Numbered from the stretch's first letter, positions 1 through 8,075 are shown. The stretch is 30,084 bases of DNA from a virus (IMGVR_UViG_2908572912_000002); one strand, 5' to 3'. Notes: generated by a model from the sequence alone, not told the origin. A program made the numbers and translations.

Positions 1-90
1 TCACTCTGCCAGATGGCGCAATGCCATCTGGTATCACTTAAAGGTATTAAAAACAACTTTTTGTCTTTTTACCTTCCCGTTTCGCTCAAG

Positions 91-265
91 TTAGTATAAA
101 AAAGTTGAATGTGAAACGGTAAAAACAATTAATATCAACGGCTTATAATTGATTCAGTCTAAAAAATAGACTGCATAATGCTACAAAACACAACATATCC
201 AGTCACTATGAATCAACCACTTAGATGGTATTAGTGACCTGTAACAGAGCATTAGCGCAAGGTGA
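91..265. other. attR: attR: lambda-type att core (ttagtataaaaaag at 91-104) with chromosomal B' flank (cgtttcgctcaag, 78-90) and phage P arm; left prophage boundary
   Basis: 15-bp core repeated at 28740-28754 (14/15 identical); flank matches E. coli attB B' arm as recalled; P-arm-like AT-rich sequence follows. Confidence 0.8.
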
Positions 266-329
266 TTTTTTTGTCTTCTTGCGCTAATTTTTTGTCAACA
301 CACTGGGTTAGCTGAATTTACAACCACGC

Positions 330-551
330 TCAGTATCTCGATAAGCGCAGAGAAATGATGCAGTGGTGGGCGGATTGGCTTGATGAAAAAGTGGAGTAAT
401 CCGGACCGTACTTCTTTATCCAGGCATAAAGGCTGTGGGTGGTGATATCGAGACGTGTTGCAACGCTGGCAACAGAATAACCGCGATCAATAACCTGTTT
501 GACTGCTTCAGTTTTAAACTCTTCGGGATAACGCTTACCGCTCATGGGCAC
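330..551 (-). pseudogene. IS3-family transposase OrfA, N-terminal HTH fragment (homology ends after ~50 aa)
   Basis: Translation MPMSGKRYPEEFKTEAVKQVIDRGYSVASVATRLDITTHSLYAWIKKYGPD resembles IS3-family OrfA HTH, then non-homologous tail; SD-like aagagagg upstream. Confidence 0.6.
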
Positions 552-611
552 CTCTCTTTAAGCCATCTTAAATGACTCTGAGGTGTCTGTTAAACCCGTG
601 GCGATTCAAAA

Positions 612-1061
612 CTGCGTGTTACGTTCGCCCTGGACTGTTGCGATCGTGAAGCCATAGACTGGGCCGCAAGCACGGGAGGTTACGATAAAGCGACAGTGCA
701 GGATGTCATGTTAGGAGCGATAGAAAAACGCTTTGGCGATAAAGTACCGGAACAGTCCATCCAGTGGCTGACAGATAACGGTTCAGCGTATAGAGCGCAT
801 GAAACACGGCAGTTCGCCAGAGAGTTGAATCTGGAGCCCTGCACAACGGCAATCAGCAGTCCTCAGAGTAATGGAATGGCAGAAAGGTTCGTGAAAACGA
901 TGAAGGAAGACTACATCGCGTTCATGCCGAAACCGAATGTAAGAACGGCATTGCATAATCTTGCAGTGGCGATCGAACATTACAATGAAAACCATCCGCA
1001 CAGTGCGCTGGGTTATCGCTCTCCGCGAGAATATCGACGTCAGCGGGTAACGTTAACTTAA
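612..1061 (+). pseudogene. IS2-like transposase OrfB, C-terminal integrase-core (rve/DDE) fragment lacking its 5' two-thirds
   Basis: Frame open from ~612 with no start: [42 protein letters not shown]...[10 protein letters not shown]...[11 protein letters not shown]...[14 protein letters not shown], resembling the C-terminus of IS2 InsD as recalled. Confidence 0.65.
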
Positions 1062-1102
1062 GATACACCCCCTGTCTGGAAATAAGGGGGCAAGAACAAT
1101 GA

Positions 1103-1855
1103 TCAGATTCCCTGGTGAGTAAGAATTTTACTTTCTGAACTCCTCTGAGAGTATTGACTTGGAGAAACACCAAAATAACGTCTAAATACATAAGTAAAGT
1201 ATGAGACACTGGCATAACCACAGACCTTAGCTACTTTACTAATAGGATAACAACGAGTGCTGAGTAAATATTCAGCCATTTGCATCCTCTCATCAAGTAT
1301 GATCTTACTGAATGATACCCCCTCTTCTTTCAATTTCATCTTTAGTAAACTTTCGCTGAGATATAATCTTGATGATATATCCTTAAGACGCCATGGTGCA
1401 GATAAATCCGTATGAATAATCGTTTTAACTTTAGCCCCTGTGCTTTTCAAACATCCAAACAGAAATACTCCAAATTGTTTTTCAGAAGAAAATGCAGAGA
1501 GACATGTAAAAGCAATAGACTCATCAAAAATTTCTATGTATTCAGCACAGTGATTAGCCCAACTAATTAATCCTTTAATTAAACTGAAGTCAGCAAAGTT
1601 TATTTTTAAATAAGATGGATATTCCCTACAATCAGAAATATCCCTTAAGTTATTAGCTTTCAAATAGCGACTAATAAACTCAGCGCCAAAATCCGCCACT
1701 ATCACTCTTTCAGGATATGTCAGGAAAAAATCTCTAGAGCTAGAGTCGACAAGTACAGATGAACCTCTCTCCAGAAACACACTCTCTTTTCCGAAATAAA
1801 CATCAAAGGACTCCAAAATCAATATAACTGAACATGTAGTTGCCATATCATCCAC
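1103..1855 (-). CDS. AraC-family transcriptional regulator, AppY-like (paralog of 10804-11544)
   Basis: 250-aa ORF; C-terminal AraC HTH (ISSRLYLSESLLKMKLKEEGVSFSKIIL...VAKVCGYASVSYFTYVFRRYFGVSPSQY); low-GC coding sequence. Confidence 0.8.
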   Translation of the reverse strand: MDDMATTCSVILILESFDVYFGKESVFLERGSSVLVDSSSRDFFLTYPERVIVADFGAEFISRYLKANNLRDISDCREYPSYLKINFADFSLIKGLISWANHCAEYIEIFDESIAFTCLSAFSSEKQFGVFLFGCLKSTGAKVKTIIHTDLSAPWRLKDISSRLYLSESLLKMKLKEEGVSFSKIILDERMQMAEYLLSTRCYPISKVAKVCGYASVSYFTYVFRRYFGVSPSQYSQRSSESKILTHQGI

Positions 1856-2067
1856 CCAATTTAACTGAAACCTGGATGAAGTATATGCATATAAAGTTCA
1901 CTTTGCCAAACTTCAGTATAAAAAACCACATAAAAAATAGGGTGTGATAAAAAATACCGTAACAATAAAGCAAAGGATTATAAAATCCGTTACAGTTACA
2001 AATGATACTCAAGAAACAATTCCTTAGGAAAAACTTATTTACAGCCAATAAGGGTAATGACTCGAAC

Positions 2068-2571
2068 TTATTGATAGTGTTTTATGTTCAGATAATGCCC
2101 GATGACTTTGTCATGCAGCTCCACCGATTTTGAGAACGACAGCGACTTCCGTCCCAGCCGTGCCAGGTGCTGCCTCAGATTCAGGTTATGCTGCTCAATT
2201 CGCTGCGTATATCGCTTGCTGATTACGTGCAGCTTTCCCTTCAGGCGGGATTCATACAGCGGCCAGCCATCCGTCATCCATATCACCACGTCAAAGGGTG
2301 ACAGCAGGCTCATAAGATGCCCCAGCGTCGCCATAGTGCGTTCACCGAATACGTGCGCAACAACCGTCTTCCGGAGCCTGTCATACGCGTAAAACAGCCA
2401 GCGCTGGCGCGATTTAGCCCCGACATAGCCCCACTGTTCGTCCATTTCCGCGCAGACGATGACGTCACTGCCCGGCTGTATGCGCGAGGTTACCGACTGC
2501 GGCCTGAGTTTTTTAAGTGACGTAAAATCGTGTTGAGGCCAACGCCCATAATGCGGGCAGTTGCCCGGCAT
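2068..2571 (-). CDS. insB: IS1 InsB (transposase frame, normally expressed as InsAB' by -1 frameshift)
   Basis: 167-aa ORF overlapping insA 3' end in -1 frame; ...[31 protein letters not shown]... Confidence 0.9.
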
Positions 2572-2765
2572 CCAACGCCATTCATGGCCATATCAATGAT
2601 TTTCTGGTGCGTACCGGGTTGAGAAGCGGTGTAAGTGAACTGCAGTTGCCATGTTTTACGGCAGTGAGAGCAGAGATAGCGCTGATGTCCGGCGGTGCTT
2701 TTGCCGTTACGCACCACCCCGTCAGTAGCTGAACAGGAGGGACAGCTGATAGAAACAGAAGCCAC
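2490..2765 (-). CDS. insA: IS1 InsA (transposition inhibitor / N-terminal part of InsAB')
   Basis: 91-aa translation [43 protein letters not shown]... matches IS1 InsA as recalled. Confidence 0.95.
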
Positions 2766-3453
2766 TGGAGCACCTCAAAAACACCATCATACACTAAATC
2801 AGTAAGTTGGCAGCATCACCAGCCTTCTTGAGGCTACCACCTGTTTTCAGGTGTCATTCAGACGTGATTTGCCCCAGATTGGGAAAGCACGCTTTTTTCT
2901 CAGCTATCGTCCTCTTATTTTGCCGTTACATTTCTTTTTGCACTCTAATGATTAATTTACAATAATAATATCGGTAATTATTGAGTAATAATAAATTGAT
3001 TATTGCAAATGTAATTTAATTCCATCTTCGCGTTATATTCCAATCTTTAATCTCCGCATGGAACAAGTTGCATGCGTGACTATATTAAGACAACTTATAA
3101 CCACCAAAACATTTGCTTTGCAAGCAAAAACAGTGACCATTGACTCTAAGAAAATTCCGATCTATTGTTAGGGTCATCAAAGTTACTTAACAGTATTCCG
3201 AAATGAAAATACAAAGCAAGCTAATTGTCTTATTAAACATTATTATTGCATTTATATTATTTGAGCTTTTAGCTCAAAAATTTGGTTTGAGTACATTATT
3301 TTAAAGCAAGATAAACAATATCGGGCACTCTAGTTTTTATAATTAACAATTAAACGTCCATGAAATGTTATTTACTTTTCTTCGCTATTGTCATATCTTA
3401 ATATAGTGGCTTACGCCACTCTACTTTCATCACATTTTGTACGTTTATGTACT

Positions 3454-3486
3454 CGCCATGAAGCTCTTTCATGGCGATTTTTTATT
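3454..3486 (+). terminator. Rho-independent terminator (9-bp stem cgccatgaa/ttcatggcg, 5-nt loop, then attttttatt)
   Basis: Perfect inverted repeat 3454-3476 followed by T-tract; lies in an ORF-poor AT-rich region. Confidence 0.6.
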
Positions 3487-3569
3487 CTTAATCCAAGAAC
3501 ATACTCCCTACCTATAGCAAAATCACTTTTTTAACAAAAGAATAACGTATTTAGGTAATCATTACGAAT

Positions 3570-3749
3570 TTACCCTATAGGTGCTACTGGCCATTCAATA
3601 TCCGGTGCAGTTGTTGTATTAACACGGTTCAGCAACACCCGATACTTCTTCCAGGCTTCCAGCAACGAAGTTTCTTCCTCCGTTGCGATTTCCAGCTCAA
3701 CAACAGTCTGAACGTACCAGGAACAGCCTCCTTCAGGGCTTGAAGGATA
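3570..3749 (-). pseudogene. tfa: tail fiber assembly protein (Tfa) 3' remnant, in frame directly after the stf stop codon
   Basis: Minus-strand translation after the stf TGA: ...[42 protein letters not shown], the conserved C-terminal motif of Tfa proteins (TfaR-like); no start codon. Confidence 0.55.
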
Positions 3750-6700
3750 TCAATGTTCGCTTCCTGTTAACTGCCCGACAAGTGCAACCAGTTCGCTTAC
3801 CTGATTTTCCAGAGTGCTGATCCGGGTGCCTGCTGTTGCCAGATTTTTACGTAGCGTTATGTTTTCCTCTTCCAGCGCGGTAACGCGACCATCTGTTTCA
3901 CGGGCGACCTGAACAAGTAACCCCGTCACGGCGGCGTAGTCAACATTCAGATAACGTGTTTCTTCACGTAATTCATTGCCGTCAACCGTTGGTCCCTGCA
4001 ACTCTTCACCGTAATGAGTAAACGATCCCACAGCTTCTGGTATCGCCTCCATTACTTCCTGTGCAATAACGCCAGCATAAGGCATCCCGTTTTCCCTGAG
4101 CGTGTAGGTGTATCCGTTCATTTTACGGATTGCTTTCGTCGCGTCGCTGATAACGAGAATATCGTCTTTAAGGTCGCGGTCTGATGACTGATTCAGCGTT
4201 GTGCAATTAATAGCGCCATTTACATCAAACAACTGGCCTGCTGACGTTTTTTGCGCATAAAACAGATACGCAGCAGACGTTCCAACCTCAAAAACGTTTT
4301 GTCGATCACTTGATCCCCATACTTTTGCGGCAAATGATAGTTCTGTATTACCTAAGTTCTGTAAAACAAAACGATTTCCAGTCCCTGTTTGTTTTGTAAG
4401 AGTTAAATCAACAGTTGAGTTAACCTCATCCTTGTTGATAGTGAGCGCCTGCGCTTTAGCCCCGTTAACAGCACCTGTTTTGAGTTGAACCGCGCCGTCA
4501 TTACCATTTAACAGTATCTCAGCTCCGCTAAAGAAATTTTTTAGCGACAGCATCTTACTTACGCCGACTGATGAACCCAACGCCCACGCGAGAGAATTAC
4601 CGGTGCTATCAAACCCACGTACAAAGCAATCCATTTTGCTATAGTCTGACGTGCTTCCAAGGACATCAATTCGCCCTCCGCCAGATTTTACCGGGTTAGA
4701 TGTGGTTAATGACCTGACAGCAAGATCGGTAGATGAATTGAGATCGTCTACTGTTAGTAATTTCTTCCATTCCTGCGTCGTTCCATTTTCAATTGTTCTT
4801 CCCCAAAAACCGGAATTGCGGCCTCCGAACTGCACAGCATAATTTTTACTAAATTGAACATGAATGCCGCCAAGAACCATAGAACCTGCCGGGCCGTTTG
4901 TACTGCCTGCAATTGGTATAAATTTATTAATGTTATCAGTATGCTGCGTGTTCCAGTCTCGTCCTGTTTTTGTAAGCAGTCCTAATGTCGTGTCGAGCGC
5001 TTCGGTTAAAGTAAGGTTTTTAAATTTAACTGCGCTACTTTCGCCAAGACTTAAGTTGTTTCGCGCATCTTCTACTGTTGTCGCACCTGTACCTCCTTGC
5101 CCAACAGCTAATGGCAACCAGCCAGTGCCATTATGACAACCCCACAAACCAGATTTGGAAACCTGTAAGCGTGGTGCGCCTGAAGAATACGTAGAATATA
5201 CGTAAGTTGTTTCTTTTCCCTCTTCAACCCTTTCTGTTGATACATCTCTCTTCCATTCAGACCAGGTACCGCTTCCTCCTTCATATATTCGTCTATAAGT
5301 AATTCCCGGATTATTATAAGGGTAGTACACCTGAACGCAGGAAGAAGCAGTGTTGGCTCTCGTTTGGAGCACTATTAAAGCGCCCGCCAGACCGATTGGG
5401 TAATTTAATTCTTCTGTTGCGTAAGCGCTCGTTGGTTGTTGATAGAAACCAGAATATTCACCGGTAAGGGTGTTTAGGTCAGTATTAGCAAGGCCAGCTT
5501 TTTGCTCATACATTACCCGCAAGTTCGCACGTGCTTGCTCGATAGTTCTTCCACCAGTACCGCCCTGGGCTAAACCTAACGGAGACCATTGTCCAGAAGA
5601 AGAATCATAAACCCCCCAACTCCCGTTAGTATGGATTTCAAAGAAACGATCACCAGTTGGACCATACATACGAGTTGTTGATTCATTTTGACCAAAGCGG
5701 CTTAATTCATCTCTGCGGGTATGACGTATCCATTGCGGGCCAGAACTTTGGCTGTAAATGTACGAATACAATGATTTTGTATCTGAACCAACAAATAGAC
5801 CGGAATATCTTTTTGTTGACACTTCTGATCTAACTATATAACCAGAAATAAGATTATCACCGGCACTAGACGCTACTGATGGATAACCTTTCGCTGAGAT
5901 GTAAATCCTGACAAATCCAATATAACCTGATGGCTCAACAGAGATATCAGTGCAGGTCATGGCAACTTCACCAAGACCGATATTATCGCCAACAATTACT
6001 TGCGCCTGGTTGCGATAATTAAGTGCGTCCGCCGCAGATTTCGCCGCGTTTGTTTCACTGGATTTAGCATTAGTTTCGCTGGCTTTAGCGTTGGTTTCGC
6101 TGCTCTTTGCTGCTGCCTCGCTATTTTTCGCGTTGGTTTCTGATTTTTTGGCTGCTGTCGCGGAGTTTGCTGATGCAGTTTGTGAGTCTGCTGCCGCCTG
6201 TGCGCTGTTATCTGCATTCGTCTCAGACGTTTTTGCGGCCTTCGCGGAATTTCCTGCCGCCGTTGCCGAGGAAGCTGCACTACTGGCACTTGATGATGCG
6301 TTCGTTTCTGATGATTTCGCTGCCTCTTTTGAGGCCGACGCATCCCGGGCTGAGGTGGCAGCTTCTGACGCTTTCGTGGTCGCGGTGGATGCAGAAGTGG
6401 CTGCTGATTGTTGTGACGCTGCCGCATTCGTTTCTGACGTTTTCGCCGCACCGGCACTGGTAGCCGCCGCGCTTTTTGAGGACTCTGCAGCGGCAGCACT
6501 TTTTGAGGCTTCAGTGGCCTTTGTTGATGCCGTTCCTGCGCTGGAAGACGCTGACTGAGCCGACGAAGCGGCCTGTCCGGCTGACGTGCTGGCTGCACGT
6601 GCTGAATCTGCAGCATCAGTCGCATGGGTTGCCGCCTCACGGGCTGATGTGCTGGCATCGCTGGCTGATTTCTTCGCGGCTGCCGTGTTCTGTGCCACCG

Positions 6701-7061
6701 CGGACGCGTTACGCGCCACCTCTTCCACCATCAGTTCAAAACGGCGCAGAGCCTCCGGACGGGCATCATCCTCCGTCATGGCACCGAGAAAATCATTCAG
6801 CGTACCGGGTCGGGAATCTTCATACACGGTGATGGTCCCGGCATGTGACGGCGGGAATCCTTCCACCAACAGAATAACGCTGTACTGACCGTACTCAACG
6901 TCCATGCTGTAACGCCCGGCTTCATCCGGATTTTCTGAGGCCAGCGTGTTCACCACCACCGTGGTGCTGTTACGTTTTGCTTTCAGCTGGATTGTGCAGT
7001 TCTGTACCGGTTTTCCTGTGCCGTCTTTCAGTACACCTGAAATCTTTACTGCCATATTCAC
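3750..7061 (-). CDS. stf: side tail fiber protein (Stf), chimeric: lambda-like N-terminal anchor, Ala/Ser/Thr-rich repetitive stalk, divergent distal domain with possible C-terminal intramolecular chaperone-like segment
   Basis: 1103-aa ORF; N-terminus MAVKISGVLKDGTGKPVQNCTIQLKA... as in lambda Stf; long SETNA-type repeats; C-terminal ...NGYTYTLRENG...ALEEENITLRKNL... Confidence 0.85.
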   Translation of the reverse strand: MNMAVKISGVLKDGTGKPVQNCTIQLKAKRNSTTVVVNTLASENPDEAGRYSMDVEYGQYSVILLVEGFPPSHAGTITVYEDSRPGTLNDFLGAMTEDDARPEALRRFELMVEEVARNASAVAQNTAAAKKSASDASTSAREAATHATDAADSARAASTSAGQAASSAQSASSSAGTASTKATEASKSAAAAESSKSAAATSAGAAKTSETNAAASQQSAATSASTATTKASEAATSARDASASKEAAKSSETNASSSASSAASSATAAGNSAKAAKTSETNADNSAQAAADSQTASANSATAAKKSETNAKNSEAAAKSSETNAKASETNAKSSETNAAKSAADALNYRNQAQVIVGDNIGLGEVAMTCTDISVEPSGYIGFVRIYISAKGYPSVASSAGDNLISGYIVRSEVSTKRYSGLFVGSDTKSLYSYIYSQSSGPQWIRHTRRDELSRFGQNESTTRMYGPTGDRFFEIHTNGSWGVYDSSSGQWSPLGLAQGGTGGRTIEQARANLRVMYEQKAGLANTDLNTLTGEYSGFYQQPTSAYATEELNYPIGLAGALIVLQTRANTASSCVQVYYPYNNPGITYRRIYEGGSGTWSEWKRDVSTERVEEGKETTYVYSTYSSGAPRLQVSKSGLWGCHNGTGWLPLAVGQGGTGATTVEDARNNLSLGESSAVKFKNLTLTEALDTTLGLLTKTGRDWNTQHTDNINKFIPIAGSTNGPAGSMVLGGIHVQFSKNYAVQFGGRNSGFWGRTIENGTTQEWKKLLTVDDLNSSTDLAVRSLTTSNPVKSGGGRIDVLGSTSDYSKMDCFVRGFDSTGNSLAWALGSSVGVSKMLSLKNFFSGAEILLNGNDGAVQLKTGAVNGAKAQALTINKDEVNSTVDLTLTKQTGTGNRFVLQNLGNTELSFAAKVWGSSDRQNVFEVGTSAAYLFYAQKTSAGQLFDVNGAINCTTLNQSSDRDLKDDILVISDATKAIRKMNGYTYTLRENGMPYAGVIAQEVMEAIPEAVGSFTHYGEELQGPTVDGNELREETRYLNVDYAAVTGLLVQVARETDGRVTALEEENITLRKNLATAGTRISTLENQVSELVALVGQLTGSEH
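6000..6700. repeat. Degenerate tandem repeats encoding the Ala/Ser/Thr-rich (KSSETNA-like) stalk of Stf
   Basis: Reiterated gcgttggtttc/gctg motifs; many spurious overlapping ORFs in all frames in the six-frame track. Confidence 0.7.
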
Positions 7062-7119
7062 CCCACAAAAAAGCCCGCCTGAACCGGCGGGCTGTCATAA
7101 CACTGTGTTACCTGGCTAA

Positions 7120-7659
7120 TCAGAATTTATAACCGACACCCACGATGAAACTGTTGGTACGCCAGTCACCGCTGCCGGAGCCTTCATAAGCGACGTCAAC
7201 GGCCACGGATTCGGTCGGGTTAAACTGCACGCCAGCTCCCCACGCCAGAGACGTGTTGCTGTGGCGACCGTCATCACTTCCGGTCAGCACATCGTGCGTT
7301 TTCCCCTTGTTGTCAGTTACGCGGATATAATCCCCGGAGAAAGTCGAAACACGGCTGTAAGCCATACCCGCCATCGCATACGCGCTGAACCATTCATTCA
7401 CGCGCACAGACGGCCCCGCCATCACGCTGAACCAGCGATTACGCACGGAATCCTCATGCCAGCGGGTATCGCTGTAATGCGTTTTTTGCTCATCTTCAGC
7501 GTTGGCATAACTGAATGACGTAATCAGCCCCAGCGTGTCCGTAAACTCATAACGGTATTTCACGTTAATCCCGTTCAGATTATCGCTGCCGGAAGCGTTC
7601 GTACGGGCATGAAGATACCCTGCGCTCAGCGTGGCCTGCTGCTCAGACGCCGCAGTTCT
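7120..7659 (-). pseudogene. lom: lom-like outer membrane protein (Ail/Lom/PagC family), 5'-truncated (no start codon or intact signal peptide)
   Basis: Frame open upstream of the listed GTG (7563) to 7659: ...ASEQQATLSAGYLHARTNASGSDNLNGINVKYRYEFTDTLG...WRTNSFIVGVGYKF; C-terminal beta-barrel motifs as in lambda Lom. Confidence 0.75.
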
Positions 7660-7859
7660 TCAACCTCCCGGCGCAGCTTTTCGTTCTCAATTTCAGCATC
7701 CCTTTCGGCATACCATTTTATGACGGCGGCAGAGTCATAAAGCACCTCATTACCCTTGCCACCGCCTCGCAGAACGGGCATTCCCTGTTCCTGCCAGTTC
7801 TGAATGGTACGGATACTCGCACCGAAAATGTCAGCCAGCTGCTTTTTGTTGACTTCCAT
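7626..7859 (-). pseudogene. nu1: terminase small subunit Nu1, truncated after ~70 aa (DNA-binding domain only)
   Basis: MEVNKKQLADIFGASIRTIQNWQEQGMPVLRGGGKGNEVLYDSAAVIKWYAERDAEIENEKLRREVEELR matches lambda Nu1 N-terminus, then RLSSRPR* from out-of-frame lom sequence. Confidence 0.9.
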
Positions 7860-7860
7860 T

Positions 7861-8075
7861 GCTCATTCCACGGACAAAAACAGAGAAAGGAAACGACAGA
7901 GGCCAAAAAGCTCGTTTTCAGCACCTGTCGTTTCCTTTCTTTTCAGGGGGTATTTTAAATAAAAACATTAAGTTACGACGAAGAAGAACGGAAATGCCTT
8001 AAACCGGAAAATTTTCATAAATAGCGAAAACCCGCGAGGTCGCCGCCCCGTAACCTGTCGGATCGCCGGAAAGGA
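7861..8075 (-). other. cos: cos site (cosB with Nu1-binding region, cosN cohesive-end sequence aggtcgccgccc at 8037-8048, cosQ side)
   Basis: Reverse complement of the lambda left end GGGCGGCGACCTCGCGGGTTTTCGCTATTTATGAAAATTTTCCGG... present, contiguous with lambda right-end-like ...cgacaggttacg. Confidence 0.85.

Follow-up and report, generated by a model that had tools for sequence, protein, structure and literature searches.

The window analysed here, the whole 30,084-nt stretch of DNA, contains a lambda-like prophage that occupies att-lambda and has kept its early region complete (int, xis, exo-bet-gam, N, a cI-like repressor, O and P, Q and the lysis genes). Approximately 19 kb of head and tail genes have been lost, and the 5' part of nohD is joined to lom at approximately codon 23 near positions 7649-7651. 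The side tail fibre gene stf is still an intact open reading frame, but the prophage cannot build virions by itself. The following features were located in and immediately downstream of stf:

7055..3753, minus strand: stf, the side tail fibre gene, 1101 codons from the likely ATG at 7055
3753..4184, minus strand: Peptidase_S74 intramolecular chaperone of 144 aa, in which the Pfam match begins at residue 960, corresponding to profile position 1
3752-3750, minus strand: stf stop codon TGA (TGA in 61 of 62 related copies, TAA in one)
3714..3749, minus strand: spacer of 36 nt (12 sense codons) with no Tfa similarity
3573..3713, minus strand: 3' remnant of tfa, 47 codons equivalent to Tfa residues 147-193, based on Pfam, BLASTP and DNA identity
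3570..3572, minus strand: TAA, the original tfa stop codon
3713..6213, minus strand: exchanged cassette of approximately 2.5 kb that runs from the distal two-thirds of stf through the S74 domain and stop codon to the spacer

The product of stf consists of a prophage tail-fibre N-terminal domain (phage_tail_N; Pfam, E 1.5e-71), Ala/Ser-rich repeats, a distinct distal part and an S74 chaperone. A mechanical ORF listing places the start two codons earlier, at GTG 7061, giving 1103 codons. An Stf of equal length and 99.3% identity is encoded in strain VE-V10-F (PGAP annotation). The preliminary description had raised the question of whether the C-terminus of Stf carries a self-cleaving chaperone domain, and Peptidase_S74 was indeed detected at the extreme C-terminus (residues 960-1011 of 1103, 45.6 bits, E 8.6e-12; Pfam cut-off, 22 bits). 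The domain opens with SSDRDLK (residues 959-965), which contains the Ser-x4-Lys motif (Ser960 and Lys965; the predicted nucleophile Ser960 in the ORF numbering is Ser958 when counted from the ATG) and aligns to SSDRRIK in gp37 of phage S16 (PDB 6F45). In pb1 of phage T5, the Ser1264/Lys1269 pair cleaves off the intramolecular chaperone after trimer folding (PMC4690869), and the five-residue spacing of Ser and Lys in Stf is equal to that in pb1. The domain ends in a heptad/coiled-coil tail whose heptads weakly resemble the coiled coil of P22 gp26 (E 0.5). A scan of Stf and the downstream remnant against NCBIfam gave no matches, although PGAP names the homologues. Based on the motif, the S74 domain of Stf is predicted to cleave itself at Ser960 via Lys965 after trimer folding. 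Since Stf carries an S74 intramolecular chaperone, a separate Tfa protein would not be expected to be required by this fibre.

Beyond the stf stop codon, the same frame remains open for 59 sense codons (3749..3573) before TAA at 3572-3570; the coordinates, codon count and peptide of this minus-strand extension given in the preliminary description were all correct. The whole extension had been assigned to the Tfa C-terminus. This assignment held for codons 13-59 (47 codons), whereas codons 1-12 are a spacer unrelated to Tfa: alignments to intact tfa loci fail upstream of 3712/3713, and the tblastn match begins at 3713. The spacer carries AAGGAGG and a 7-bp hairpin, and we infer that it is intergenic DNA brought in by the S74 cassette. 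The Tfa part, hereafter the stub, has its first codon 36 nt past the stf stop, directly downstream of the fibre gene. Formal alignment left no doubt about its identity. Residues 14-57 of the 59 correspond to positions 87-130 of the 131 positions in Caudo_TAP (PF02413; 67.6 bits, E 1.6e-18; Pfam cut-off, 22.1 bits), residues 13-58 match lambda Tfa 147-192 (35/46 identities, 76%, E 2e-24; BLASTP), and residues 13-59 match Tfa 147-193 of phage ev099 (42/47, 89%, E 3e-28; BLASTP). Tail fibre assembly families in PHROG also matched the stub, with E values down to 5.6e-17. The similarity between the stub and Tfa is far beyond chance.

Full-length lambda and E956 Tfa sequences searched by tblastn across the whole 30-kb window matched only at residues 147-193, and no intact tfa with a valid start was found. 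The earlier statement that most of tfa is gone therefore stands, with the qualification regarding when and where this happened that is discussed below. The claim that no start codon is present was accurate for ATG, which is absent from the 59 open codons; in-frame TTG (codon 29) and GTG/TTG (codons 38/39) do occur. The start codon and ribosome-binding site of tfa itself are missing. Tfa proteins combine a variable N-terminal fibre-binding domain with a conserved C-terminal trimerising helical domain (PMC9608196), and only the latter is retained in the stub. Because the fibre-binding domain is gone, the stub alone cannot chaperone a fibre (domain roles after PMC9608196), and the lack of both a start codon and this N-terminal domain identifies it as a pseudogene fragment that is probably unexpressed. 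PGAP likewise labels the equivalent of window positions 3701-3570 'tail fiber assembly protein, incomplete, missing N-terminus'.

The origin of this arrangement can be examined by comparison with APEC E956, which has the same att-lambda (ybhB-bioA) prophage arm. By blastn, window positions 3712..1 (3,712 nt) were 99.76% identical to E956, with the same IS1 and AraC-family gene in both, and positions 7651..6214, covering the 3' end of lom and the 5' end of stf, were 92.5% identical (E956 locus L015). The same search detected no similarity between 6214 and 3712. The intervening DNA of E956 is 3.0 kb long and codes for the His-rich tip of a lambda-type Stf together with an intact Tfa of 193 aa, whereas the distal Stf encoded in the 2.5 kb of the window is unrelated; the E956 stf is intact and encodes 1133 aa. 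An intact stf-tfa-AraC arrangement is also found in phage ev099. The window cassette thus occupies the place of the E956 lambda-type stf 3' end and tfa codons 1-146, with its left junction in the Ala/Ser repeats (approximately stf codon 283) and its right junction in the tfa 3' end (approximately codon 147). As had been proposed, the receptor-binding end of the fibre has been exchanged, here relative to the E956 arm, with 6213..3713 standing in for the His-rich tip and the first 146 codons of tfa. The direction could be either: the window may have gained the S74 cassette, or E956 may have regained stf-tfa. The window arrangement is closer to those of VE-V10-F and APEC E956 than to that of strain 98206, in which the junction is a 100% match but the upstream DNA differs and a complete morphogenesis region is present.

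The junction between the S74 fibre gene and the stub is widespread. With a 131-nt probe spanning the S74 3' end, the stop codon, the spacer and the start of the stub, the identical junction was found in 804 of 5,426 complete E. coli genomes (about 15%), at 1,377 places. Almost all matches were at least 95% identical, and they were ungapped among those listed. Prophages carrying the junction occupy several chromosomal sites, including att-lambda, the ydfJ (Qin) site and a site near potB. In the genomes inspected, PGAP names the stf partner 'prophage tail fiber N-terminal domain and S74 family endopeptidase-containing protein' and calls the stub a pseudogene in every case. A blastn search against phages recovered the junction only in the isolated phages mEp460, Ayreon and PhiR70_1, with no annotated tfa next to stf in the fetched stretch of any of the three. 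DNA identity across the phage and RefSeq E. coli prophage copies was 93-100%. Two scans of IMG/VR yielded 51 and 62 loci, with the same spacer and stub wherever downstream DNA was stored. A donor context, in which the S74 3' end or spacer is followed by something other than tfa, was found neither among phages by blastn nor in the IMG/VR scans, and an exact-pattern scan of the GTDB species-representative genomes for a cassette donor gave 0 matches.

As no retrieved S74 3' end with stored downstream DNA lacks this spacer and stub, the junction is monophyletic, having arisen once. The occurrence of an identical junction in hundreds of genomes and in viable phages shows that the truncation of tfa is old and was inherited with a widely circulating cassette rather than arising in this genome. 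The preliminary description was right that tfa had been largely removed; residues 147-193 remain, and the truncation was not a local event. A junction of the same kind, formed in an independent event, is present in phage 2G7b, where an S74 fibre gene is followed by an ORF for a 100-aa membrane protein and then by a shorter tfa stub starting ...ATEEE.

The variation among junction copies indicated how the cassette may have spread. Over 59 complete copies, nucleotide diversity increased rightwards, from 0.020 (S74 3' end) through 0.028 (spacer) and 0.08 (stub codons 13-45) to 0.36 (stub tail). The final stub residues fell into approximately 15 classes (e.g., PVAPIG, PALP, PAVPVME, PTNPVRE, PEEPDTV and WPPPSKR), each linked to a single downstream sequence type when one-base variants were allowed. 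The two main spacer alleles, which differ by non-synonymous P/S and W/R changes, assorted freely with these classes. The linkage of the tail to the backbone combined with the free assortment of the spacer therefore indicates that crossovers occurred repeatedly inside the stub. In other words, the left part of the stub travels with the S74 cassette and the right part belongs to the recipient backbone, and the stub serves as a homology arm for cassette exchange. The conserved C-terminal domain of Tfa (PMC9608196) explains why its 3' DNA can act as a patch of homology shared by differing stf-tfa loci. On the other side of the cassette, the part of the window shared by PhiR70_1 is only 4193..2821, which opens slightly ahead of the S74 domain (start at 4184), and that shared by mEp460 is 4967..3590; in both phages, the same S74-plus-stub module is joined to other distal Stf segments. 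Distal fibre segments can therefore also be swapped with the S74 domain as the module boundary.

Taken together, these results make it very probable that the locus is the scar left by recombination at a cassette for tail-fibre specificity. A cassette for an S74 fibre would have replaced the distal stf segment and roughly the first 146 tfa codons of an ancestral lambdoid stf-tfa locus; the C-terminal domain of this fibre would serve as the folding template for the trimeric tip and afterwards cleave itself off at Ser960. The 47-codon remnant, encoding the C-terminal helical domain of Tfa, would be left as a dead fragment. After arising once, the junction would have been carried by homologous recombination to further lambdoid phages and prophages of E. 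coli, with the conserved tfa 3' end as the right homology arm and either the stf Ala/Ser repeats or the S74 domain itself as the left arm.

A simpler history would be one in which the fibre had always been of the S74 type and the 5' part of a neighbouring complete tfa was lost in this genome, with no exchange of the receptor-binding end. The heavily degraded state of the prophage, with approximately 19 kb of head and tail genes gone and an IS1 nearby, would fit such a deletion. This history is nevertheless very unlikely: the same junction, spacer included, recurs in hundreds of genomes, in viable phages and at several integration sites, the nearly identical E956 arm holds a completely different distal Stf and an intact tfa between the same flanks, and the same S74-plus-stub module is joined to other distal Stf segments in PhiR70_1 and mEp460. 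Two other alternatives concern the stub rather than its origin and would grant it a function. Some ribosomes might pass the stf TGA, so that the S74 chaperone would gain 59 residues that include the trimerising helices of Tfa. In favour of this, almost all complete copies keep 59-60 codons open, 61 of 62 copies have TGA as the stop, no gap interrupts the junction at about 1,377 genomic places, and the S74 tail, like the Tfa C-domain, is a helical element for trimerisation (PMC9608196). However, a single origin and identities of at least 95% already account for the kept frame. One copy has TAA instead of TGA at the stf stop (L014), another has a 1-nt deletion that frameshifts the stub (L026), and a third has lost stf through a lom-spacer deletion (L046). 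The spacer differences are non-synonymous, and no third-position excess was found at polymorphic stub sites (13/16/18), although this test has low power, as the functional S74 3' end likewise lacks such an excess. The RNA around the stf stop folds no better than shuffled sequences (z = 0.18), the extra residues would be carried by a domain predicted to be removed by cleavage and lost (PMC4690869), and in the independent 2G7b junction the stub lies approximately 350 nt away behind another gene. Functional read-through of the stop is thus highly improbable.

The second of these alternatives, translation of the stub on its own from TTG (codon 29) or GTG (codon 38) into a Tfa-like helical peptide, is if anything still less credible. 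Both codons are in frame, GGAGGA lies approximately 10 nt ahead of the TTG, and PHROGs includes families of short proteins (78-88 aa) ending in the Tfa C-domain (phrog_2341 and phrog_3792). Against this, there is no ATG, GGAGGA merely encodes the conserved EEE, and the product would be only 22-31 aa without the fibre-binding domain (PMC9608196); moreover, PGAP calls a pseudogene in every genome inspected, and the stub tail is hyper-variable and follows the backbone.

The preliminary description had presented the shared frame as an in-frame fusion. An in-frame join with a stop-free 12-codon spacer has a chance of approximately 0.2 (1/3 x (61/64)^12) and is therefore not statistically remarkable in itself, and retention of the frame is expected from a single origin and identities of at least 95%. 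There is no evidence of function in the comparisons made here, and the frame shared with stf is probably an inherited accident. A broader proposal, that the stub has been kept for a reason, either because low-level read-through of the TGA adds a second trimerising helical element or because the stub is a recombination adaptor under second-order selection that allows the S74 cassette to enter any stf-tfa locus, is very unlikely. As a mechanism, a role of the stub as an adaptor is supported by the crossover pattern, which points to exchange within it.

Apart from the need to annotate it correctly, the locus is of little significance. The appropriate label for the stub is tfa pseudogene fragment, and that for Stf is S74 (self-chaperoning) fibre, with a host-range module unlike that of the lambda-type Stf. 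The locus is also a textbook example of the movement of a specificity cassette, with the conserved tfa 3' end as a landing pad. It could be of some use for host-range engineering of lambdoid Stf, as isolated phages carry natural S74-ended Stf chimeras with no adjacent tfa, and the natural crossover points mapped here would also be useful for this purpose. Literature searches found no specific description of S74-type lambdoid Stf proteins with tfa remnants. The feature itself is common, already annotated by PGAP and explained by established tail-fibre module exchange, and in this sense it is already known.

Comparison with known systems places each part of the locus in a familiar context. The stub shares 76-89% identity with lambda and ev099 Tfa over residues 147-193 and, like the members of the lambda Tfa/Caudo_TAP family (lambda orf-194, TfaQ, TfaR, P2 G and Mu U), lies directly downstream of a side-tail-fibre gene; unlike them, it lacks the variable N-terminal domain, the start codon and the ribosome-binding site. 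The S74 domain resembles the chaperones of K1F endosialidase, T5 pb1/LtfA and S16 gp37 in forming the C-terminal approximately 140 aa of a trimeric fibre and in its Ser-x4-Lys motif and coiled-coil tail, whereas in the window it sits on a lambda-type Stf N-terminus and shaft, and its cleavage is predicted. The copies in mEp460, Ayreon, PhiR70_1 and RefSeq E. coli prophages share the stop codon, the 36-nt spacer and the stub start with the window, but their stub tails and downstream DNA vary with the backbone, and the window prophage differs from the other junction copies in having lost all other virion genes. Tail-fibre and chaperone cassettes have reportedly been exchanged in mosaic fashion between lambda, P2, Mu, P1 and T-even phages (Haggard-Ljungquist and colleagues in 1992, Sandmeier in 1994, Hendrix and Duda in 1992). 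Related phages also alternate between an IMC and a separate Tfa (PMC11990801). The present case is of the same kind: a distal module has been swapped at conserved flanks, and either chaperone solution serves close relatives. The window locus is the scar expected when an IMC-type module replaces a Tfa-dependent one, and does not differ in kind from known fibre-cassette mosaicism.

The entire morphogenesis region from terminase to J (~19 kb) is gone from the window prophage, and stf, the side-tail-fibre gene, is the sole intact virion gene remaining. At the deletion junction, what is left of nohD runs into lom at approximately codon 23 with a 3-nt overlap (window ~7649-7651, minus strand), and it is owing to this join that lom lacks a start. 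The remnants at the junction and the features lying beyond stf are as follows.

7861..7651, minus strand: nohD', of which the 5' ~211 nt are left
7651..7120, minus strand: lom', start missing
3453-3487, plus strand: strong intrinsic-terminator-like hairpin, with an 11-bp stem and a T run behind it
~2050-2820: IS1 (insA/insB), downstream of the tfa stub, the 3' remnant of the tail fibre assembly gene
1103-1846, minus strand: AraC-family regulator gene
87-1061: IS2/IS3-family transposase fragments

The IS1 stands in place of approximately 550 bp found in the phages ev099 and PhiR70_1 and in strain VE-V10-F. Because it occupies the identical site in the window and in Escherichia coli APEC E956, whose prophage arm has intact stf and tfa, sequence comparison points to a very recent relationship between the two arms. 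The AraC-family gene and the IS2/IS3-family fragments separate the tail-fibre region from the chromosome on the ybhB side, and this block looks like a moron, given that ev099 and PhiR70_1 carry it too. The hairpin at 3453-3487 points against stf. Across 2800-4000, the stf strand showed nothing resembling a terminator downstream of the stub.

The best PHROG matches of the stub include families of short proteins that terminate in the Tfa C-terminal domain, namely phrog_2341 (88 aa), phrog_3792 (78 aa) and phrog_5572 (130 aa). These families may represent open reading frames called over similar tfa remnants in the genomes of phages, or they may be genuine mini-Tfa proteins.

Twelve IMG/VR loci (L068-L078 and L080) were left out of the junction analysis, for which they were unusable because their sequences extend precisely to the stf stop codon and no further; the probable cause is that prophage boundaries were trimmed to the ends of genes or that the stored data are limited. 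Phage 2G7b (3900-4335) has an S74-fibre junction of independent origin, in which a 100-aa predicted membrane protein sits between the fibre gene, named for its S74 intramolecular chaperone domain, and a shorter tfa stub whose sequence starts at ...ATEEE. On the reverse strand of the IMG/VR contig L046 (about 3471-3905), stf is wholly deleted and lom codon ~60 directly abuts the spacer, the short segment that separates the stf stop from the stub in the window; the join passes through an ATATC microhomology and results in a 145-codon Lom-spacer-stub open frame.
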